This document shows positions 29,910 through 41,568 of a stretch of DNA of 64,000 bases, piece after piece. Each line of letters begins with the position of its first letter. The stretch's first letter is position 1. Below the pieces are notes generated by a model that was not told where the DNA came from, made no database searches, and saw only the letters and a list, made by a program, of their open reading frames with translations. The translations under genes and the position numbers were made by a program. Source of the DNA: a candidate division FCPU426 bacterium (GTDB taxonomy: Bacteria; Oederibacteriota; Muellerivitia; Muellerivitales; DAHXKG01); contig DAHXKG010000005.1 of NCBI GenBank assembly GCA_027366525.1, positions 2,575 through 66,574 of the forward strand, read 5' to 3'.

Positions 29910-29987
29910 GGGGTTGTAGCTCAGCTTGGTTAGAGCGCCTGCCTGTCACGCAGGAGGTCGCGGGTTCGAGCCCCGTCAACCCCGCCA
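29910..29987 (+). tRNA. tRNA-Asp (anticodon GTC), with encoded CCA
   Basis: GGGGTTG acceptor stem pairs with CAACCCC. D-loop AGCTCAGCTTGGTTAGAGC. Anticodon stem CCTGC/GCAGG with loop CTGTCAC. T-arm GGGTTCGAGCCCC. Discriminator G + CCA. Confidence 0.9.
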
Positions 29988-30286: not shown

Positions 30287-30350
30287 TGACAAAAGGCTAT
30301 ATTTGGATAAATATGTATATAGAAATGAATAACTATAGGCATATTTATCC
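30287..30350 (+). promoter_or_regulatory. candidate abiE promoter/operator: TTGACA -35 box and 11-bp perfect inverted repeat GGATAAATATG..CATATTTATCC ending 1 nt before the abiEi ATG
   Basis: TTGACA at 30287-30292. IR arms at 30305-30315 and 30340-30350 separated by 24 nt. AbiEi antitoxins are known to autoregulate via inverted repeats in their promoter. Confidence 0.45.
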
Positions 30351-30971
30351 ATGAATACGGCGACCAAAGCAAAAACCTATGAAAGGGCCATCAAGGTCTT
30401 CAAGACCCATGGAGGGCTCCTGTCCTCGACAGAGGCCATTCAGGCGGGCATCCATCCAAGGGACCTTTACGCCATGAGGGATGCCAAACTGCTCGAACAG
30501 ATGAGCCGGGGGCTTTACCGCCTTTCGGATATGCCTTCCCTCGAAAACCCAGACCTTGTGACGGTAGCCAAGCGAGTGCCAAAGGGGGTCCTTTGCCTGA
30601 TCTCGGCTCTTGCCCTTCATGAGCTGACCACCCAAATACCCCATGAGGTTTATGTGGCGCTCAAGATGGGGGCGAGAATCCACCGGCTGGAAAACCTGCC
30701 TCTTCGGATTTTTCATTTTTCCGGTAAGGCTTTTACGGAAGGGATTGAGGAACGAAAGGTGGATGGGGTGGCCTTCCGGGTTTATTCCAAGGAAAAAACC
30801 CTAGCAGATTGTTTCAAATATCGGAATGTCGTTGGGATGGATACGGCGCTGGAGGCCCTCCGTAATTATTGGAAGAGCCGGGGGAAGAATATGGATAAGC
30901 TTACCCATTTTTCGAAAATCTGCCGTGTCGAAAACGTCATGCGGCCTTATTTGGAGACCATTCAAGAATGA
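30351..30971 (+). CDS. abiEi: AbiEi-family antitoxin (type IV TA / abortive infection)
   Basis: 206 aa. N-terminal winged-HTH pattern (YERAIKVFKTHGGLLSSTEAIQAGIHPRDLYAMRDAKLLEQMSRGLYRL) typical of AbiEi. ATGA-overlapped with downstream DUF1814 NTase gene. GC-rich relative to flanks. Confidence 0.75.
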   Translation: MNTATKAKTYERAIKVFKTHGGLLSSTEAIQAGIHPRDLYAMRDAKLLEQMSRGLYRLSDMPSLENPDLVTVAKRVPKGVLCLISALALHELTTQIPHEVYVALKMGARIHRLENLPLRIFHFSGKAFTEGIEERKVDGVAFRVYSKEKTLADCFKYRNVVGMDTALEALRNYWKSRGKNMDKLTHFSKICRVENVMRPYLETIQE

Positions 30972-31894: not shown

Positions 31895-32200
31895 GAAAAT
31901 CAAAAGAGTTCAGCCAAAGCCTTAAAGAAGGTCTTAAGTTTGCTCAAGGCAAGAAGGCGAAAGTTAAGGTTGAAAGACTTCTCGTAAAGCGCAAACCCTC
32001 CAAGCTGAAAAAGTAAATCTCTGATTTTGCGGGGAAAGCCTTCCCCCTGGCCTCGGCTACCTTCGGTGATCCTCGGCACACCCCCTTCTTCTGGGGCTTT
32101 GCCCCAAGCCCTTTAAATCATCTAAACCCAATGTAGAAATGACTTAAAGTTTGAATCTTTTTGTAATTAAAAAAGTCCTTGAATTTATAGGAAATTAGTA

Positions 32201-32218
32201 ATACGCTAATCAGCGGAT
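32201..32218 (+). promoter_or_regulatory. 18-nt motif ATACGCTAATCAGCGGAT upstream of the XRE gene (copy 1 of 2)
   Basis: Identical 18-mer recurs at 33329-33346 upstream of the DUF3892-like gene. Near-palindromic core CGCTAATCAGCG. Confidence 0.45.
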
Positions 32219-32238: not shown

Positions 32239-32559
32239 GTGATAAAAATGACATTTGGAGAATTTGTAGCCACTAAGCGGAAGGAAAGGAAACTTACCCA
32301 GAAGGATTTGGCGGCGAAGATTTTGAAAGAAGACGGCAATGCCATAACGGCCCAATATCTCAATGATATTGAGCACGATAGGCGAAATCCCCCGGCTGGC
32401 CAGTTGCTTGAACAGTTTGCGAAAATGTTAGATATCCCGGTGGATGCTTTGTACGTCTTGGCTGGCAAAATGCCAGATAATCTTTTGAAAAGTAAAGATG
32501 TTGATGTTCAAAAACTTGAAGTCGCCTTTCAAGCGTTTAGAAAAAAACTTAAGGAATAA
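32239..32559 (+). CDS. XRE-family (HTH_3) transcriptional regulator
   Basis: 106 aa. FGEFVATKRKERKLTQKDLAAKI...AITAQYLNDIEHDRRNP helix-turn-helix pattern. Confidence 0.75.
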   Translation: MIKMTFGEFVATKRKERKLTQKDLAAKILKEDGNAITAQYLNDIEHDRRNPPAGQLLEQFAKMLDIPVDALYVLAGKMPDNLLKSKDVDVQKLEVAFQAFRKKLKE

Positions 32560-32561
32560 TT

Positions 32562-33281
32562 TTGAAATACGTTCGCGACATTTCGGGAATCCTAAGAACC
32601 AGACCTCACTTGCAACCTGTCGAAATCGACAGGAAGTGCGAGCAAATCATCCGCGAATTTATGGAGCTTGAATGCGGTGGGTTTGTTGTGCCAATTCCGA
32701 CCAGTGCTTTGACGCGGTTGATTGAACGTGATGCAGATGACCTGGATTTGTACGCTGATCTTTCAAAGGACGGCCAGGGCATTGATGGTGTAACCGATTT
32801 TGTGAAAGACAAGCGGCCACGGGTTAGGATTTCAAAGGAGCTTTCGGAGGCAAAAAACGAACATCGCTTACGTACGACCTTGACCCACGAATATGGGCAT
32901 GTGAAATTTCATGCTCCGTTGGTAGCCGCCGAGGCTCTCGATCAAGACCTATTTGGTCCTGGTGCCACGAAAACCCCGCATCACTGTAACAGGGAGCGTA
33001 TTTATTCAAAAAACACTTCAAATTGGATGGAATGGCAAGCTGGTTATGTTTGCGGGTCACTATTGATGCCGTTGACGATTTTCAAGGAGTTCGTTTTGGA
33101 ATTTTTTAAACGTGAAAATACCCACGCCCCTCTGAAAATTTGTACCCCGCTGGCAGAAAAACTTTTGGCAGAAATCTCTCAAAAGTTTCATGTTTCCAGG
33201 GACGCTGCCAAAGTGCGGCTTTTCTATGTTGGAAATGGGTCTTATCTGACGGATGGGGATCCCCACCCAACCATGCTTTAA
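32562..33281 (+). CDS. ImmA/IrrE-family metallopeptidase
   Basis: 239 aa. HEYGHVKFH HExxH zinc motif in the ImmA/IrrE position immediately downstream of an XRE regulator (3-nt gap). Confidence 0.7.
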   Translation: MKYVRDISGILRTRPHLQPVEIDRKCEQIIREFMELECGGFVVPIPTSALTRLIERDADDLDLYADLSKDGQGIDGVTDFVKDKRPRVRISKELSEAKNEHRLRTTLTHEYGHVKFHAPLVAAEALDQDLFGPGATKTPHHCNRERIYSKNTSNWMEWQAGYVCGSLLMPLTIFKEFVLEFFKRENTHAPLKICTPLAEKLLAEISQKFHVSRDAAKVRLFYVGNGSYLTDGDPHPTML

Positions 33282-33328
33282 TCTCCAAAATAATCGGTTC
33301 AAAACATTGACAAGAACAACCTTTCGTG

Positions 33329-33346
33329 ATACGCTAATCAGCGGAT
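33329..33346 (+). promoter_or_regulatory. 18-nt motif ATACGCTAATCAGCGGAT (copy 2 of 2), upstream of DUF3892-like gene
   Basis: Exact repeat of 32201-32218. Preceded by TTGACA at 33306-33311. Confidence 0.45.
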
Positions 33347-33399: not shown

Positions 33400-33687
33400 A
33401 TGGCAGAGCGAGTGGAAGTAAGTTGTATCGACAAGCGGGACCGTCAGAATCCGCATGAACGGATTCAGGCCATTGGCGGTGTGCATGGTGGCCAGCGATG
33501 GAAGATGTCGGAAGAGAATGCAATCCAGAGCATTAAGGCTGGAAAATACGATTTTTACGTTACTCGAGGCGGTCGGACCGTGGACGTGATTATCGACACC
33601 CACAGCGGGCGTGAATATCTGAAAACGGAAAATGACGGGTATAGCCCGGACAACCTTCTCAGTTTAGACGCATGCAGGGTAAATTAA
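33400..33687 (+). CDS. DUF3892-like small protein
   Basis: 95 aa. C-terminal pattern FYVTRGGRTVDVIIDTHSGREYLKTENDGYSPDNLLSLDAC resembles the DUF3892 signature (fyv..gG..v.V....g.kYLrT.aDg...dNLlsLp.C) recalled from memory. Needs HMM confirmation. Confidence 0.5.
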   Translation: MAERVEVSCIDKRDRQNPHERIQAIGGVHGGQRWKMSEENAIQSIKAGKYDFYVTRGGRTVDVIIDTHSGREYLKTENDGYSPDNLLSLDACRVN

Positions 33688-33735
33688 TGGGGACGGCCTG
33701 TCGGTGACGGCGGGTCGTTTTTTCAAAAAGACATA

Positions 33736-33984
33736 ATGAGGTGCACAATGCTCGTTTACTGTACTAATTGCAAAAAAGAACATGCTGACCCAGGTATGAA
33801 CCTCCCGTGGTCATCCTGTCGGTTCTGCGGCGGAAACCTGGTTCGATCTGCAGGAGTTGGTCGTCTTGCCGGTGCTGGTGCAGGGGCGGCGCTTGGATCC
33901 CTTGGGGGACCTTTCGGCGCCGTTGTTGGTGGCGTCCTGGGATTTTTCCTTGGAAATACTGCAGAAAAAAACATCAAGAGGTGA
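33736..33984 (+). CDS. zinc-ribbon + glycine-zipper small membrane protein
   Basis: 82 aa. CTNC...CRFCGG zinc ribbon, then GAGAGAALGSLGGPFGAVVGGVLGFFLGN glycine-zipper TM helix. AGGAG-like RBS. Stop 4 nt before the next start. Confidence 0.6.
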   Translation: MRCTMLVYCTNCKKEHADPGMNLPWSSCRFCGGNLVRSAGVGRLAGAGAGAALGSLGGPFGAVVGGVLGFFLGNTAEKNIKR

Positions 33985-33988
33985 TGTA

Positions 33989-34579
33989 ATGGTACATAAG
34001 GTATTTTTTAGTTTTCATTATGAGCGGGATAACTGGCGTGCCGGACAGGTGCGTAATAGTGGAATCACCAAGTCCGACGTCGAATCCGCCGGGTTCATCG
34101 ATGCAGTTGAGTGGGAGTCCATTCAACGCGAAGGTGACAAAGCTATCGAATCGTGGATCGAGAAGCAGATGGAAGGGACGGCGGTTACGGTAGTCCTGAT
34201 TGGGGCTCAAACGGCCAATCGGCGCTGGGTCTTGCACGAGATTAAGCGGAGTGCAGAAAAAGGCAATGGATTGCTTGGCATCTATATCCACAACGTCAAG
34301 GACATGGAGGGTAAAAAGGACTCCCAAGGGAAAAACCCATTTACAGAATGCGGTATCGAGGATGTTCCCATCTATGACTGGGCTGAAGACAACGGATACG
34401 AAAATTTCGGGAAATGGGTTGAAGCGGCATATCAGAAAGCTCTTCCGAAGGCAGGAAAAGCCGTTGGTGCTGGTGCAGGTGCCGCTATCGGTGCACCCTT
34501 TGGGCTCCTCGGAGTCGTTATAGGGGCGGCGGTTGGGTACCTTTTTGGAAATGAAGTCGATAAAGAAAGTAAGGGATAA
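33989..34579 (+). CDS. ThsB-like TIR-like domain protein (DUF1863/MTH538 type) with C-terminal glycine-zipper TM helix
   Basis: 196 aa from ATG 33989 (AAGAGGTGA RBS). The ORF-track upstream extension to 33857 is frame read-through of the previous gene. KVFFSFHYERD...VRN...TAVTVVLIGAQTANRRWVLHEIKRSAEKGNGLLGIYIHNVKD...GKNPF...YDWAEDNGYENFGKWV parallels Bacillus cereus Thoeris ThsB (RVFFSFHY...TSVTCVLIGSQTFNRRWVRYEI...GIHIN..KD...GPNPFD...YDWVADDGYNKF) as recalled from memory. Tail GAGAGAAIGAPFGLLGVVIGAAVGYLFGN. Confidence 0.7.
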   Translation: MVHKVFFSFHYERDNWRAGQVRNSGITKSDVESAGFIDAVEWESIQREGDKAIESWIEKQMEGTAVTVVLIGAQTANRRWVLHEIKRSAEKGNGLLGIYIHNVKDMEGKKDSQGKNPFTECGIEDVPIYDWAEDNGYENFGKWVEAAYQKALPKAGKAVGAGAGAAIGAPFGLLGVVIGAAVGYLFGNEVDKESKG

Positions 34580-34583
34580 TTAA

Positions 34584-35009
34584 ATGGGAAAAAAATTTAA
34601 ACACCTAGAGTTTATCCAGGCAATTATCAACCGAATGGCCGGCAACTCTTTCTTAATCAAAGGTTGGTCGGTAACGGTTCTTTCCCTTGTTACTGCATTC
34701 GTGCTAAATGATGGCGACCCTCGGTTGGTTCCTGTGGCTTACTTTCTTGTTCTGATGTTCTGGTTCCTTGATGCCTACTACCTAAAAATCGAAAAGAACT
34801 ATCGGGAACTATACAAGGCTGTCTGCAAAACCGAGGAGAAGGCTATCGATTTCAACCTCGCTTCCAATGGCTACTCCAAAAAAGCGGGTAGCTATGGAGC
34901 CGTTCTATTCTCCACCACCCTGCTTTTGTTCTACGGGGCGTTGATTGTTTTTGTCGTCGTTGTTCATCTTATGACGGGAGTGTGTCATGGCACGTCGTGT
35001 ATTTTTTAG
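34584..35009 (+). CDS. small 3-TM membrane protein (candidate effector; possibly SLATT-like)
   Basis: 141 aa. TM segments [56 protein letters not shown]. 4-nt gap from upstream gene and 23-nt overlap with downstream gene. Confidence 0.55.
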   Translation: MGKKFKHLEFIQAIINRMAGNSFLIKGWSVTVLSLVTAFVLNDGDPRLVPVAYFLVLMFWFLDAYYLKIEKNYRELYKAVCKTEEKAIDFNLASNGYSKKAGSYGAVLFSTTLLLFYGALIVFVVVVHLMTGVCHGTSCIF

Positions 35010-35442
35010 TTTTGATTATGATCGGGACATTTGGCGGATTGGACAAATTCGAAATAGTGGTTTGACTAAACCGGACATTGAAACTGCTGGATTTGTTGAT
35101 TCTGCATCCTGGGAATCCGTCAAACGTCAGACCGATGAAGCAATCGCACGATGGATAAATAATCAGCTTAATGGAACTTCAGTTACTGTAATTCTTATTG
35201 AGGTGGAAACGGTTCAAAACAGGTGGGTAAAGTATGAAATAGACCAAAGTATTTTGAGGGGGAACGGATTGCTTGGAATTTATATCCACAATGTTAAGAG
35301 CGCTTTAACTGGGCAAACCGATTATCAAGGTAAAAATCCTTTCGATGCTTTTGTGCTCACTTCAACCAATTTACCCCTCTCTCGCTATTACTACACGTAT
35401 GACTGGGTTATGAATGACGGATACAACAATTTTCCTGCTTGA
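34987..35442 (+). CDS. second ThsB-like TIR-like domain protein (DUF1863/MTH538 type), soluble
   Basis: 151 aa. RVFFSFDYDRDIWRIGQIRNSGLTK...TSVTVILIEVETVQNRWVKYEIDQSILRGNGLLGIYIHNVK...GKNPFD...YDWVMNDGYNNF. Paralogous to 33989-34579 but lacks the TM tail. Confidence 0.7.
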   Translation: MARRVFFSFDYDRDIWRIGQIRNSGLTKPDIETAGFVDSASWESVKRQTDEAIARWINNQLNGTSVTVILIEVETVQNRWVKYEIDQSILRGNGLLGIYIHNVKSALTGQTDYQGKNPFDAFVLTSTNLPLSRYYYTYDWVMNDGYNNFPA

Positions 35443-35786
35443 GGGGAACTTGCGGCTCAACGAGCAGGTAAATAATAAATCGTCCCTTTAATAATTCCCC
35501 TAAGAAACATCCTGAAACTCATTTAGATGGTTTTCTTCATTTCCGAGCGGCCTTAGCCACCAGTGGATCATTGAAATCTTTCAAATTTCACAACGCCGGG
35601 TCTGTCAAGTGATGGGTTTATCGAGAAATATATATCGGTATGCGCCTCCGGGTCGCTCGGAGGAACCGTCTTTGATAGCTCGAATGATCGAACCGGCATG
35701 TCTGTATGGACGCTATGCCCCATATGTCAGGATAGATGTCGCTTTTAGAGATATACTTCTCACGGGGTCAAAAAGGAAAAGGACCG

Positions 35787-36242
35787 ATGGAACAGTTCAA
35801 ATATTCAGAAGAATTCAAAAAGACAGCCGTTCAAAAGTTGTTGAATCGAGGTTCTCGTTTAGCGGAAGAAATCAGCAAGGAGCCAGGGGTTGCTTTGAGT
35901 ACCTTGCACCGGTGGAAGACGGAGCTAGGCTACAAGGGAGAAATTAAAAGTACGAGTCCAAGGCCACAAGATAGAAATCCTGAAGAAATGCTGAGATTAT
36001 TGATTGAATTTGAAAAAACACCTGAAGAAAAGAGGGGTTAGTTTTTGCGCATGAAAGGTTTACACACGCAAGAGATCGAGAACTGGCGAAACCAAATCAA
36101 AATGGCTTTAGGTCCAGGTGGTAAGAGGGTCGTGGATCGCAATGAACAAGTTAAAAATCGACTCCGGATTAAGGAACTGGAGAGGGATTTCGTGCGCAAG
36201 GACAAAGCTTTGGCCGAGGCCACCGCGCTTTTGATTCTTTAA
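35787..36242 (+). pseudogene. IS3-family transposase OrfA, interrupted by in-frame stop at 36039-36041
   Basis: HTH N-terminus and leucine-zipper-like C-terminus (KELERDFVRKDKALAEATALL) lie in the same frame separated by TAG. Confidence 0.6.
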
Positions 36243-36370
36243 AAAAAGCCGAATTGATTTGGGGAATCGAGGAGAACGAGTGAGCGCTGCCGATAGGACT
36301 CAGACCCAAGAGTTGATCGACGAAGCGGTTCGGGGGGGCCCATCAAGACAAAGCGGCTCACTAACTGGGC

Positions 36371-37189
36371 GTGTCGGTGAGAACTTTACAACGTTGGAAA
36401 TTTCAACTGGAAAATGGGCGAAAAGGCCCCCAAACACCACCCTCCAATGCGCTGAGCTTACAAGAGCGCGCTCATGTGTTGTCAGTGGCCAATAGCGCGG
36501 AATTTGCGGATCTGTCGCCGTGGCAAATCGTGCCGCGTCTTGCCGATCGTGGAGAATATCTGGCAAGTGAATCAAGCTTTTATCGGATTCTGAAAGCTGC
36601 CAATTGTTTGGCTCCTAGGTCAAGATCCAAGCCCAAGCAGCGTCAAAAACCAGAGGCGCTGATAGCTGTCAGACCCAATCAGGTTTGGAGCTGGGATATT
36701 ACCTATTTGAAGACTCGAATCCAGGGAATGTTCTTTTATCTTTACTTGCCCATGGATATTTTTTCTCGAAAGATTGTTTATTGGGAAGTGCATGAAAGTG
36801 AAAGCGCTGAACTGGCCAGTGGAATGATGGCCAAGGCCTGTGAAGTGCAGACGATCGAACCTGGTCAAATCAAACTCCATTCGGATAATGGAGGCCCGAT
36901 GAAGGGGGCGACAATGCTGGCAACGCTTCAGCGTTTAGGGGTTGCACCGTCCTTTAGCCGCCCGAGTGTGTCAAACGACAATCCTTATTTAGAGTCGTTT
37001 TTCAAAACACTGAAGTATTGCCCGAGTTATCCGACAAATGGTTGTTTTGATAGTATCGAAGTGACACGGGAGTGGGTTGAAAAATTCGTTTATTGGTATA
37101 ACCACGTACATTTACACAGTGGCATTAACTGGGTGACACCCGATTCCCGTCACGAGAACCGTGATCAAGCCATCTTAAAAAAACCGTGA
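36371..37189 (+). pseudogene. IS3-family transposase OrfB (DDE integrase core), frameshifted at both ends
   Basis: rve core motifs present. N-terminal part lies in a different frame (36259-36495). C-terminal tail shifts frame after 37189. Confidence 0.6.
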
Positions 37190-37776: not shown

Positions 37777-40700
37777 TTATTGAAGAATAATAAGTTTAGT
37801 GATGAACCGACCGGATGAAGTATTCACGACTAAATAATAGAGTCCATTGGCTAAAGGTACATGACTTATATCCAAAGGCGTAATCCGAATGATCGACGCG
37901 CCACTTGGGAAAGAACCAAAATCTTGACTGAATATCTTTCGGAATGCGGTTGTGAATATCTGTATCGTTAAGGAATTAACAGACTGGGGTAAAGAAATTT
38001 GTACTTGAAGTGGACCATCACCAAGATATGGATTTGGAAATGGAAGTGCAGACAAATGCTGGATCACAGGTGTGGGGCTTAAGGCATTTTGGAGGATGGG
38101 AGTTGGACTTAAAATGGGTGTCGGTGTGCTGGTTGATGTAAATATGGGAGTCATTGTTTGCGTGGGTGATGTTGTTAAGGTGGGTGTGAAGGTATTTATT
38201 TTAGTAAATGTTGGAGTTGGAGTCAAAGTATAGGTTGGTGTGGAAGTAGTAGTCAAGGTTGGGCTCCATGTAGGAGTGGGTGATAAGGTCAAGGTTACAG
38301 TTGGTGTGGGGGTTGTTGTATCGGTGAATGTGGGCGTAAAGGTAGTCGTATCTGTGGGGGTTAAAGTCAAAGTGTCAGTAGGAAACGGAGTTGATGTTAA
38401 GGTAGGTGAAAATGTCGAGGTTAGGGTAGGGGTGGTTGTCCAAGTCGGTGTTGACGTTTGAGTTGGAGATGAAGTGATGGTTGGAGTTAACGTTGAAGTT
38501 ATTGTCCAAGTCGAGGTTGGGGTAGCTGTAAAAGTATTTGTGGGTGAAGAAGTCGGGGTTGAAGTAGGCGTGGAAGTGAGCGTGGGAGTATAGGTTAAGG
38601 TGGGGGTTGGAGTCTGAGTGGGAGACGGAGTGGATGTTTCGGTTGAAGTAAAAGTGGCCGTTGAAGTCGGCGTCATGGTAGAAGAAGGCGTAGTGGTAGG
38701 CGTGCACTGAATATTATCGTTGACAATTTCAATTCCAGTCACTTCCGCATTATCCTTGGTAGGAACTTCTAAGATATCAATGAGTTGATTGGTTACGGGA
38801 ACGACAAAACTTCGATTATAGGCGGCATATTGTCCAACTTCGGCATAAATATCTAAATTGGTAATGACAGTAACGCCGTTGATCATGACGCTAAAAATCC
38901 GATCATTGGAAGCCGTCCAATATTGCTCCACGAATCGAAGATTAACGGTATAGGTCCCATTGGTGGGAACGGTAAATTTATATTCAACTGGATTGCCGTA
39001 TCGTTCTGTTTGATAAATCGTTGGATTTTTGGTTCCGGAGATTGCATTGGTGATAGTGGCAGCTTGAGTATTGGTTCCTACATAGCCAAACCCACCCGTA
39101 GTATAAGCCTGATCGGGAGACCACGTTCGTCCGAGATTGTCGATATAACCAGTTGTTCCACCTAAACCACAATCAATTCGGATCATGGATTGAGCACAAG
39201 GATTTTCAGTGGGTGTAGGAGTGGGTGGAGGGGTTGGGGTGTTGGTGGGTGTAGGGGTGCACGTGTAGGGAGCACAAGGATTAGGAGCAGTATCATAAGC
39301 TTCTTTTACGGCCCATACGGTATTGGCACGCATATAATAATGTGCACGAACATTTTGAACACCTGAAGTCCAAGCTTCGGGTGTTCGAAACCAAAGTTGG
39401 GCGGTATTCCAAATGGTGTTATAAAGGCTATAGCCAATTTGAGTCGCTTGCGTATTCATGCCAAGTTGGATCATGCCAGCTACAACGCCCCAGGCGGTTC
39501 CCACCCAAGCTTCTTGTGTTTGTGAGGACGAGGTATCAATCGCACCTGCGGCGGTCATGACATTAACCACGCCGTCAGCTCCATTATCAAAAAGTTTATA
39601 GTTATTGTTATAAATCGTTTGAAAAGCACTGATGGCATCGGCGGTAGGAACAATGCTAGGGAGTCCGCAGGCTTCCGCATACCATTCGCCGCATAATTGA
39701 TCATCCATAATACGGGTATCGGCTGGTGGCGTATTCGTTGTACTGTAGTCAATATCATAATAGGTGTTGTTCCACAAGAGCGACTGATAACTGGCTTGTC
39801 CGGTATTAAACCAGCTGGTATAGGATGTGGCAGTGGTTGTATTCCCTTCGGCCGTTGCAATTTGTTCTGCCGCTTCACAGGCGGCGAGAAAGAGTCCACC
39901 ACAGTAAGCGGTATCGCCGGTGAGCGACATGTTGTCGTAGGTTTGATCAACTCCCGAGCTAATTGGAAGTCCGGTGGCATCACATTGACTATGGACTTTA
40001 TTCATAGCGACTTGAACAGCCGGCCAGCAATAATTAAGAAAAGCCGTGTCGGTTTTTCCTGTAATTTCCCAATCCCGGTAAACCATGAGGACAAATTTGG
40101 AATTCAAATCTTTCCAAGTTGTGGTATCGCGATAGGTATAAGCATTCCATTGAGTAAAGCAAGTATTGAGGTCACCCAAATCATGAGCGCAGGTTCCAAT
40201 AGCAGCCGGATAGAAACTTTGAGAGTTAATTAAGCTATTGCTAAATTCTTTTACACATTGTTTATCCAAATTAGGCCAAAGCATAATTAAGGGCCAAGAA
40301 CTATAAAATCGTACATCCGAGGTTTCATAGTAGGGATAAATATAACTTTCCAAATGAGCAAACATATCATCACTGGGATTGGTGTTGGTGGGTTGACCTG
40401 AAGCACCACCGGCTTCCCACATGGTTCCGCTGGTAAAAAGTTCATAGAGTTCATTGAATAAATCGGTTTTTAACCAATCCGGATAAAGTCCATTATTTAG
40501 AATTTGATTCTGCCAGGTTGTGATGGAGGTGTCCCAAGTGGGGTAGTTATTAAGCGCATCATTGGCAATGGCCCACGAATTGCGTCCAGTTTGTCCATAA
40601 TACCGAGTATATTCTCGGTACCATAAATCCCCGGTCCCGCCATCAGCGGCAGCAGGTTCCGCTAACGGAATATCCCAAGACAAAACGATGGGCACCACAA

Positions 40701-41568
40701 TGGATTGCCCAGCTGATAGAGTGGTGGTAAAGGCAATGCCCCCGATAGCATTATTCCCAACGGTATTGTTGAGCTGTCCGGTACTGATAAATTGACTTTG
40801 AAGAGTTTGAATTGTAGTCGCTGATTGGTATGTGATGGTTACCGAGGTACTGGATTGACTGGCTAAACAGAACTCACCTTGAGTTTGATCAGTGGCATTT
40901 CCCGTTCCAGTGCGTGTTAAGATCAGGCCCACGTTGTTATTGACTTGGGTAACGGCAGCTACGCCACCTCCAAAGGTATTGTCCCAAGTGAGCATAACGG
41001 ATACGGTAGTTGGCAGAGAGGTGGGATTGCTGATGGCCCATTTATAAATAGCAACCGGATAAGAGGAACGTTGATAATCATTGGGAATGATCGGACTAAA
41101 TTGTGTGACTGTGGCAGGACATGAAAAAAGATTGCCAGTGTAAGTAACCCATGCTTTGGGGAACAGAGCATAATAAGTGGCTTGACCTGTGCCTAGCGTA
41201 GCCCCATTAAGTTTTTCAGCTGTGGGAGTTCCTCCTTGAGGTTGTTCAAACAAATAAAAATCACAATTGGTATCAACGGTTTGATTATTACTTCCAATAT
41301 TTAATCGACCCAGATAAAAATCACCACTGTACATCCAAGTGATTGTGCCTGCTCCAAATCCACCGATGGGGGCTCCATCATCGTAACCACTGGAACCAAC
41401 ATCTCGACTCCAAGCTTGGGAGGGAATGACTTGAGCATGGAGGCGACTTGCGATTAATCCTGAAAGAATTAATAATAAAAAAATAATTTGAATACGAGCT
41501 GGAATTGAAAAAATTTTTTTTATTGTCATTATTTTAATTTTATCATAAAGCAGAAAATTCAAAGACAA
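37777..41568 (-). CDS. secreted glycoside hydrolase-like protein (GH116/GBA2-like (alpha/alpha)6 candidate) + malectin carbohydrate-binding domain + Thr/Pro linker + C-terminal sorting domain
   Basis: 1,263 aa. Signal peptide (IFLLLILSGLIASRLHAQ). Malectin signature (IRIDCGLGG...W..D..Y...IYQTERYG...YTVNLRFVEQ...RIFSVMINGVTVITNLDIYAEVG). ~210-aa TPT/STP linker. C-terminal ~90 aa similar to the C-terminal domains of neighbouring genes. GH family assignment is tentative. Confidence 0.6.
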   Translation of the reverse strand: MSLNFLLYDKIKIMTIKKIFSIPARIQIIFLLLILSGLIASRLHAQVIPSQAWSRDVGSSGYDDGAPIGGFGAGTITWMYSGDFYLGRLNIGSNNQTVDTNCDFYLFEQPQGGTPTAEKLNGATLGTGQATYYALFPKAWVTYTGNLFSCPATVTQFSPIIPNDYQRSSYPVAIYKWAISNPTSLPTTVSVMLTWDNTFGGGVAAVTQVNNNVGLILTRTGTGNATDQTQGEFCLASQSSTSVTITYQSATTIQTLQSQFISTGQLNNTVGNNAIGGIAFTTTLSAGQSIVVPIVLSWDIPLAEPAAADGGTGDLWYREYTRYYGQTGRNSWAIANDALNNYPTWDTSITTWQNQILNNGLYPDWLKTDLFNELYELFTSGTMWEAGGASGQPTNTNPSDDMFAHLESYIYPYYETSDVRFYSSWPLIMLWPNLDKQCVKEFSNSLINSQSFYPAAIGTCAHDLGDLNTCFTQWNAYTYRDTTTWKDLNSKFVLMVYRDWEITGKTDTAFLNYCWPAVQVAMNKVHSQCDATGLPISSGVDQTYDNMSLTGDTAYCGGLFLAACEAAEQIATAEGNTTTATSYTSWFNTGQASYQSLLWNNTYYDIDYSTTNTPPADTRIMDDQLCGEWYAEACGLPSIVPTADAISAFQTIYNNNYKLFDNGADGVVNVMTAAGAIDTSSSQTQEAWVGTAWGVVAGMIQLGMNTQATQIGYSLYNTIWNTAQLWFRTPEAWTSGVQNVRAHYYMRANTVWAVKEAYDTAPNPCAPYTCTPTPTNTPTPPPTPTPTENPCAQSMIRIDCGLGGTTGYIDNLGRTWSPDQAYTTGGFGYVGTNTQAATITNAISGTKNPTIYQTERYGNPVEYKFTVPTNGTYTVNLRFVEQYWTASNDRIFSVMINGVTVITNLDIYAEVGQYAAYNRSFVVPVTNQLIDILEVPTKDNAEVTGIEIVNDNIQCTPTTTPSSTMTPTSTATFTSTETSTPSPTQTPTPTLTYTPTLTSTPTSTPTSSPTNTFTATPTSTWTITSTLTPTITSSPTQTSTPTWTTTPTLTSTFSPTLTSTPFPTDTLTLTPTDTTTFTPTFTDTTTPTPTVTLTLSPTPTWSPTLTTTSTPTYTLTPTPTFTKINTFTPTLTTSPTQTMTPIFTSTSTPTPILSPTPILQNALSPTPVIQHLSALPFPNPYLGDGPLQVQISLPQSVNSLTIQIFTTAFRKIFSQDFGSFPSGASIIRITPLDISHVPLANGLYYLVVNTSSGRFITKLIILQ
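38075..38705. repeat. low-complexity Thr/Pro/Ser-codon tandem repeat (linker-coding) within 37777-41568
   Basis: Reiterated ACN-CCN codon units. Generates spurious ORFs on other frames (38240-38461, 38375-38707). Confidence 0.8.

Follow-up and report, generated by a model that had tools for sequence, protein, structure and literature searches.

Seven new types of the Thoeris anti-phage system have recently been verified (Yirmiya et al. 2025, bioRxiv 10.64898/2025.12.03.692087, December 2025). Type V consists of ThsB and ThsF and was verified in Bacillus thuringiensis DAR 81934 and Bacillus sp. 1NLA3E: the TIR protein ThsB makes 3'cADPR, an isomer of cyclic ADP-ribose, which activates ThsF. 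For the B. thuringiensis system, the preprint reports 3'cADPR induced by phage, toxicity triggered by the signal and anti-phage protection. It describes ThsF as a protein with three transmembrane (TM) helices, annotated as DUF2270 and modelled as a heptameric channel or ring with basic pockets between the protomers. The locus presented here comprises four genes, g1 to g4, and is located in a window of 64,000 nt of contig DAHXKG010000005.1, from a candidate division FCPU426 bacterium; all positions are counted within this window. Judging from homology, the genes g2, g3 and g4 make up a type V Thoeris of the ordinary kind with two sensors, and PADLOC also lists it as PDC-M50, one of the bioinformatic "phage defence candidates" (PDC) added to this database (Payne et al., bioRxiv 10.1101/2024.01.29.577857). 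For the explanation as a whole, that is a two-sensor type V Thoeris anti-phage system with accessory parts, we estimate a probability of about 80%.

The four genes are tightly packed on the + strand, with 4 nt between g1 and g2, 4 nt between g2 and g3 and an overlap of 23 nt between g3 and g4; on this point the sequence and the list of open reading frames (ORFs) agree with the initial annotation of this DNA. The latter had placed the start of g1 at 33736. The ORF exists, but a start at 33748 is more likely, as an AGGTG Shine-Dalgarno motif lies 5' of this site and both homologues and gene callers begin there. Thus, g1 would extend over 33748..33984 (78 aa, or 82 aa if the alternative ATG at 33736 is used).

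The evidence that carries our interpretation mainly concerns g3 (34584..35009, + strand), which encodes a protein of 141 aa. The sequence of the DAR 81934 ThsB in Table S1 of Yirmiya et al. was followed to the exact protein (P0121), then to its contig and to the next gene. The gene directly 3' of this verified ThsB encodes a protein of 141 aa, ThsF. BLASTP aligned it with g3 at 37% identity over 132 aa (E 3e-33), hhalign matched it to the g3 family profile with a probability of 100% (E 1e-48), and it matched the same four PDC-M50A models of PADLOC as g3, for which the best E-value was 1.2e-44. Based on these three results, g3 is a ThsF, and PDC-M50 and type V Thoeris are one system. The predicted effector is therefore present at the locus, and it is ThsF, not ThsA. 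Also, the TIRs of Table S1 most similar to g2 and g4 are labelled "DUF2270 - Type V", and IMG gene 2623395588, listed there as a type V TIR, is near-identical by eye to a TIR of Winogradskyella undariae (L014), whose gene lies directly 3' of a g3 homologue. A bona fide ThsF was also sought on plasmids that encode proteins related to the B. thuringiensis ThsB, but none of the 3 loci examined had a small TM gene next to the TIR gene.

The three TM helices attributed to g3 by the initial annotation were recovered by structure prediction. The AlphaFold2 model (predicted local distance difference test, pLDDT, 90.6) contained long helices at residues 2-43, 46-82 and 111-134, in agreement with three hydrophobic stretches in the hydropathy profile. 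The protein keeps all 13 invariant residues of its family and shows conserved basic residues in its N-terminal part (K4, K6, H7, R17, K26), and the ratio of nonsynonymous to synonymous substitution rates (dN/dS) was 0.065. No Pfam or NCBIfam family was matched at threshold; weak matches to DUF3278, DUF2270 and 8xMP were not usable.

The two TIR proteins, g2 (33989..34579, + strand, 196 aa) and g4 (34987..35442, + strand, 151 aa), share 52% identity. In g2, the ThsB-type TIR domain occupies residues 1-150 and is followed by a glycine-zipper anchor at residues ~155-190, while g4 is a second ThsB-type TIR predicted to be soluble. Both exceeded the gathering score of Pfam ThsB_TIR (PF08937; g2 E 2.7e-26, g4 E 6.5e-22), and both matched the ThsB models of PADLOC (6.9e-62 and 4e-55) as well as PDC-M50B (3.5e-61 and 3e-56). 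The structures 6LHY and 9B7D of ThsB from Bacillus cereus MSX-D12 were matched at ~3e-30 (6LHY: g2 3.6e-30, g4 3.7e-30). In the alignment with relatives nearly all conserved TIR positions are kept, Glu84 included: in both proteins its counterpart in B. cereus ThsB is the Glu of the motif VRYEIMKS, in our view the catalytic residue, and this column is 100% conserved in 47 relatives. For the TIR domain of g2, dN/dS was 0.05. These similarities suggest that g2 and g4 probably share with B. cereus ThsB the conversion of NAD+ into 3'cADPR. The initial annotation had recognized in these proteins two ThsB-like TIRs, the first fused to its own membrane anchor, and this part of it was borne out by the profile searches and by the position of the zipper.

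Taken together, a ThsF homologue with three predicted membrane-spanning helices, adjacent ThsB genes and a conserved Glu84 are the features of type V, and the co-location of PDC-M50A and PDC-M50B matches is that of PADLOC PDC-M50. As in the verified systems, a three-TM ThsF homologue of ~140 aa and adjacent TIR gene(s) occur in one operon within a defence island, and several ThsBs per effector, as found here, are common in type V (Yirmiya et al. 2025). Differences exist. The proteins g2 and g4 are of the DUF1863 clade, that of B. cereus ThsB, whereas the ThsB verified in B. thuringiensis falls into a different clade of TIRs; also, the system predicted here has an anchored ThsB, the additional gene g1 and, upstream, CapH/CapP-like and DUF3892 genes. 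The PDC-M50 entry of PADLOC-DB v2 is a candidate system of two genes, proposed by bioinformatics and listed without a mechanism; its A component, a membrane protein, is matched by g3 and its B component, a TIR-like protein, by g2 and g4, while g1 and the zipper tail are not part of it.

The initial annotation had seen in the same genes a non-canonical Thoeris that had not yet been described, with tiny membrane proteins in the place of ThsA. Its observation that ThsA is missing was correct. Between the tRNA-Asp gene at 29910 and a glycoside hydrolase family 116 (GH116) gene at 37777, neither the ORF list nor Pfam nor PADLOC gave any SIR2, SLOG or Macro protein, and the type I effector ThsA (SIR2 + SLOG) beside ThsB was not matched among the proteins scanned; the partners of the TIR genes are indeed membrane proteins. 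In comparison with type I Thoeris of B. cereus MSX-D12, the ThsB homologues are close and the catalytic Glu is conserved, but there is no ThsA and the predicted effector would disrupt the membrane instead of depleting NAD. With type II (ThsC) and type VII (ThsH) the locus would share the activation of a membrane-spanning effector by a nucleotide signal made by a TIR; however, g3 is far smaller, belongs to a different protein family and has no Macro or SLATT domain. Accordingly, the Macro-TM ThsC and SLATT ThsH effectors were not matched in g1 or g3, and Pfam gave no SLATT or Macro match at E <= 1 in either protein. The mechanism proposed in the initial annotation, with a small membrane protein reading out the TIR signal, is most probably right, but it is essentially that of verified type V Thoeris; PADLOC already has a model for the gene pair, and g3 is homologous to a verified ThsF. 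Novelty of the architecture is thus refuted, and we regard this reading as very improbable. The main value of our analysis is this correction: a locus flagged as possibly new belongs, as far as homology tells, to type V Thoeris (PDC-M50).

The ThsF family is very large, with thousands of sequence clusters in many phyla and on plasmids, and is not seen by Pfam. A database search yielded 460 sequence clusters of g3 homologues of ~133 aa, without any Pfam domain, and in an exhaustive profile search 5641 representatives reached E <= 1e-3, while a limit of E <= 1e-30 left 775; by tblastn, homologues were found on 137 plasmids. Gene neighbourhoods were studied on GTDB contigs with one genome per species, where at least 543 of 600 candidate stretches contain a gene for a g3 relative; the 80 loci kept come from many phyla, CPR bacteria and archaea among them. 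A TIR gene of the DUF1863 type was present in 49 of these 80 loci. In the others, 26 neighbour proteins were scanned and matched TIR_2 (16), ThsB_TIR (7), SEFIR (2) and SLOG families. With seeds of all TIR classes, 68 of the 80 loci had a directly adjacent gene on the same strand matching a TIR-type seed; two or more TIR genes were present in 22, and in 18 a TIR gene flanked ThsF on both sides. That one small membrane protein occurs beside TIRs of many clades is as expected for a shared effector. Also, because TIR genes stand on both sides in 18 of 80 loci, the TIR-ThsF-TIR order is a standard layout. Of the four-gene arrangement whose conservation had been put forward as a check, the TIR-ThsF-TIR part is therefore recurrent, while g1 is only found in close relatives. 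Two domain fusions were also noted, SLOG(LD_cluster2)-ThsF and 8xMP-ThsF (proteins P0393, 378 aa, and P0390, 351 aa). The SLOG-ThsF fusion fits ThsF being a membrane module gated by a nucleotide signal.

We hypothesize that g2 and g4 sense the phage and then convert NAD+ into a cyclic ADP-ribose isomer, presumably 3'cADPR as in B. thuringiensis type V and in type I with B. cereus ThsB. ThsF (g3), as a three-helix protein of the inner membrane, would bind this signal and breach the membrane, so that the infected cell is stopped, either because the infection is aborted or because growth is arrested. To place two different ThsB paralogues around a single effector is a common means of sensing more kinds of phages.

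The original part of the locus appears to be g1 together with the tail of g2. As the initial annotation had indicated, g1 combines a zinc-ribbon motif (CxxC-x15-CxxC) with a C-terminal glycine-zipper membrane segment; Pfam matched Gly-zipper_Omp at 3.5e-5, matches to zinc-ribbon families being weak, and all 4 Cys are kept in the relatives L092 and L095. The C-terminus of g1 and the g2 tails are 41-53% identical with an invariant Gly pattern, which indicates homologous zippers. Both parts are under purifying selection (dN/dS 0.11-0.19 for g1, with dS 0.65-1.27, and 0.06-0.17 for the tail). The tail is kept in relatives whose g2 is 79-89% identical (tail-bearing proteins P0242-P0245), and where g2 is 85-89% identical, the cassette HTH-M78-DUF3892-g1-g2 was found in the same order wherever the contig permits. 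Outside close relatives g1 was not found: there was none in the 80 GTDB ThsF loci, none on plasmids and none in JGI metagenome contigs, either with back-translated peptide patterns or with a degenerate zinc-ribbon pattern (75 stretches, no true match). Thus, g1 and g3 cannot be grouped as "small membrane proteins", as had been done, since g3 is a widespread effector and g1 a rare accessory of this lineage. A glycine zipper mentioned together with Thoeris was not found in the searchable literature. The zipper anchor on the ThsB g2 and its zinc-ribbon partner g1 therefore look undescribed, with a narrow, lineage-specific spread.

The zippers of g1 and g2 would probably co-assemble in the membrane, and such an assembly would bring the production of the signal close to ThsF and/or provide one more input, which senses or restrains. 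A stronger version of this proposal, in which the g2 tail and g1 form a hetero-oligomeric membrane complex that acts as a new input or control layer of Thoeris, with a TIR sensor tethered to the inner membrane and clustered beside ThsF, is tentative, and we give it a low probability. If true, activation might follow an event close to the membrane, for instance the injection of phage DNA or the action of a holin, or alternatively the binding of a phage factor by the zinc ribbon. A membrane-localised TIR sensor would be without precedent in the described Thoeris types, and a g1-g2 pair controlling where or when the TIR fires would bear on the open question of how ThsB senses infection.

Several points weigh against the type V reading or parts of it, and they concern the annotation of ThsF, the signal, the zipper, transcription, the unity of the locus and the state of g4. 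First, g3 has no match to PF10028 (DUF2270) at E <= 1, remaining below the Pfam threshold, and in the g3 family this domain appears only below threshold, in 7 of 48 members (best 4.9e-4). Nevertheless, the verified B. thuringiensis ThsF is not matched by PF10028 either with the same Pfam release, so this miss is no evidence against the membership of g3. Second, one verified type V system is not triggered by 3'cADPR (Yirmiya et al. 2025), which makes the signal uncertain here. Third, AlphaFold2 modelled the TIR domain of g2 well, but its tail had a pLDDT below 50, giving no structural evidence on the zipper. Fourth, a terminator-like hairpin (33689..33723, + strand) with a stem of 15 bp followed by U6 lies between the DUF3892 gene and g1; its fold (-21.5 kcal/mol, z -4.87) was as stable in 0 of 200 shuffles. 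Co-transcription of g1-g4 with the upstream genes is thus not assured, and their expression may depend on read-through past the hairpin. In the relative L092 the hairpin is probably not conserved, because the gap between DUF3892 and g1 is only 32 nt there.

The unity of the locus is challenged by GCA_021800745.1 (L081, JAJYYS010000001.1), where an identical g3-g4 block (34578-35717, 99.2% overall) is present without g1-g2 and the homology begins exactly past the g2 stop. This could mean that two systems stand side by side, with g3 and g4 as a minimal type V Thoeris and g1 and g2 as an independent membrane TIR module that does not need ThsF. In two relatives, an extra ThsB of the TIR_2 type is inserted between g2 and the g3 homologue, which also shows modularity, and the restriction of g1 to close relatives of this locus, with none at the 80 other ThsF loci, points in the same direction. 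Glycine zippers can form channels, and under this explanation the zipper proteins g1 and g2 would themselves form a lethal pore or sense membrane damage. However, the L081 junction (2780-2935) is AT-rich with poly-C/poly-G and looks like an assembly artefact. Moreover, the tail-bearing g2 precedes further Thoeris genes in every contig that is long enough: a g3 homologue follows in L082, L088 and L089, and a TIR_2 gene with a partial g3 homologue in L092, while the L095 contig ends too soon past g2 to show the following genes. The spacing of 4 nt suggests translational coupling, and a known TIR system without a dedicated effector that acts through a 40-aa zipper was not found. Other ThsBs of the same clade (P0253, P0254, P0325) are anchored by a classical C-terminal TM helix and also precede a gene for a distant ThsF-like protein (hhalign 99.7%). 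Membrane anchoring of ThsB beside ThsF has therefore arisen more than once, in at least two independent ways, with a glycine zipper and with a classical TM helix. Overall, we consider two separate systems unlikely, and a lethal or damage-sensing pore of g1 and g2 equally so. In L081, the g3-g4 block is joined to respiratory genes, so that its boundary is either an assembly chimera or the real end of a two-gene cassette.

The last point against a fully working type V system is the state of g4. Its residue 72 is Glu (G72E, codon 35200-35202) at a position where 98% of relatives have Gly, including the 82%-identical relative of g4 itself. Also, the TGA stop sits at the conserved Trp codon of the ...DWVEEAAQRAGR ending, and past the TGA the same frame still encodes the ancestral C-terminus, GELAAQRAGK (35440-35478). 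An alternative genetic code, in which TGA would be read as Trp, was ruled out, as g1 itself ends with TGA. The two changes may impair g4 and may represent early decay of the second ThsB; its dN/dS of 0.18 is above the values of g3 and of the g2 TIR domain. Since an element of the IS3 type with fragmented transposase ORFs starts ~290 nt downstream, at least g4, and perhaps the whole module, could be a remnant that lost its function after insertion of this element. Such decay appears quite unlikely to us, as purifying selection is strong on g1, g2 and g3, all three of them intact, g3 has lost none of its invariant family residues, and the same sequence occurs on 7 contigs from several samples. 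Also, B. cereus ThsB ends two residues past the equivalent Trp, so the loss of 11 residues in g4 is perhaps harmless.

Upstream of g1 there are three genes on the + strand that may regulate or assist the system. The first encodes an XRE-type helix-turn-helix (HTH) regulator, CapH-like (32239..32559, 106 aa; Pfam HTH_3 8.3e-8), with PADLOC matches to HTH_VI (1.4e-10) and, weakly, to capH (0.002); it is syntenic in L092. The second encodes an M78/IrrE-type metallopeptidase, CapP-like (32562..33281, 239 aa; Pfam Peptidase_M78 2.1e-6, above the gathering score), which matched capP of PADLOC weakly (3.4e-8) and is syntenic in L088 and L092. The third, a DUF3892 gene (33400..33687, 95 aa; Pfam PF13031 1.5e-16), appears to be an accessory and is conserved directly 5' of g1 in L088, L089, L092 and L095. 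When DNA is damaged, pairs of an HTH and an M78 protein (CapH/CapP) lift the repression of defence operons, and such pairs are also reported for operons with DUF3892 (Lau et al. 2022, bioRxiv 10.1101/2022.04.27.489752). As for the CapH/CapP regulators of CBASS and other defence operons, a pair of an XRE-HTH and an IrrE/M78 protein stands by a defence operon with DUF3892 present; however, the pair and the operon share one strand here, while the described pairs are divergent from their operons (Lau et al. 2022), and the role of the present pair is suggested here only by a 24-nt element common to two promoters.

The first copy of this element (TTAGTAATACGCTAATCAGCGGAT, 32195..32218, + strand), a putative operator, lies over the -10 of TTGAAT-N17-TACGCT, 5' of the HTH gene, and the second (33323..33346, + strand) within TTGACA-N17-TACGCT, 5' of the DUF3892 gene. 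The two copies form a direct repeat with 22 of 24 positions identical, for which the chance expectation in 8.1 kb was estimated at ~3e-4. A scan for consensus sigma-70 promoters over 31.8-35.8 kb gave nothing, the promoter-like sites above having a non-consensus -10 (TACGCT). The repeat is likely a shared operator. Because the element is common to both promoters, we suggest that the HTH protein would hold both operons, its own and that of the defence genes, in repression until activation of the M78 peptidase.

The initial annotation had also placed this Thoeris-type TIR module in an island next to AbiE, and this context is real. The GC content is 0.45-0.51 in the island (raised between 30 and 37 kb) and roughly 0.34-0.42 in its flanks. 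A tRNA-Asp gene (29910-29987) is located just upstream and is followed by AbiEi/AbiEii, and an IS3-type element (35736-37189) with an HTH_Tnp_1 ORF and an rve ORF lies downstream of g4. The other ORFs of the 29.9-37.8 kb region are the AbiE, HTH, M78 and DUF3892 genes and the IS3 element. A tRNA-derived direct repeat of at least 16 nt marking the end of the island was not found. In the IS3-family element, extra short ORFs occur between the HTH_Tnp_1 and rve ORFs, so that the transposase seems more broken up than the usual programmed frameshift would explain.

Some minor observations were made on related loci and on neighbouring genes. Further ThsBs of the same clade have a conserved non-membrane tail and occur in operons with ThiF/E1 and JAB genes, as in an Omnitrophica metagenome-assembled genome (L090, JAQUQH010000017.1, 3183-6757), where the order is TIR - ThsF-like - DUF1863 ThsB - ThiF/E1 - JAB. 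The ThsBs P0246, P0249, P0250 and P0259 have in common the non-membrane C-terminal tail ...SFPNRPITPNKPSGFANVVF, which could be a substrate of Cap2/Cap3-like conjugation enzymes. In L093 (JBLFKZ010176599.1, 90-5087), a ThsB with a C-terminal TM helix and a distant ThsF-like gene form a pair located directly 3' of a ubiquitin-like operon (Multi_ubiq, Prok-E2_E, ThiF, BubE) and of a fused HTH-M78 regulator. Next to the AbiE genes of the island, a 19-nt inverted repeat (30304-30351), 89% complementary and with a spacer of 10 nt, has its end at the start codon of AbiEi and may be the autoregulatory operator of this toxin-antitoxin pair. Finally, the gene that follows the island (37777-41568, - strand) encodes a GH116 beta-glucosidase of 1263 aa that combines a Malectin domain with long linkers rich in Pro and Thr and, at its C-terminus, a FlgD_ig-like domain of the sorting type, a make-up which suggests a diderm host, possibly of the Fibrobacteres-Chlorobi-Bacteroidetes (FCB) group.

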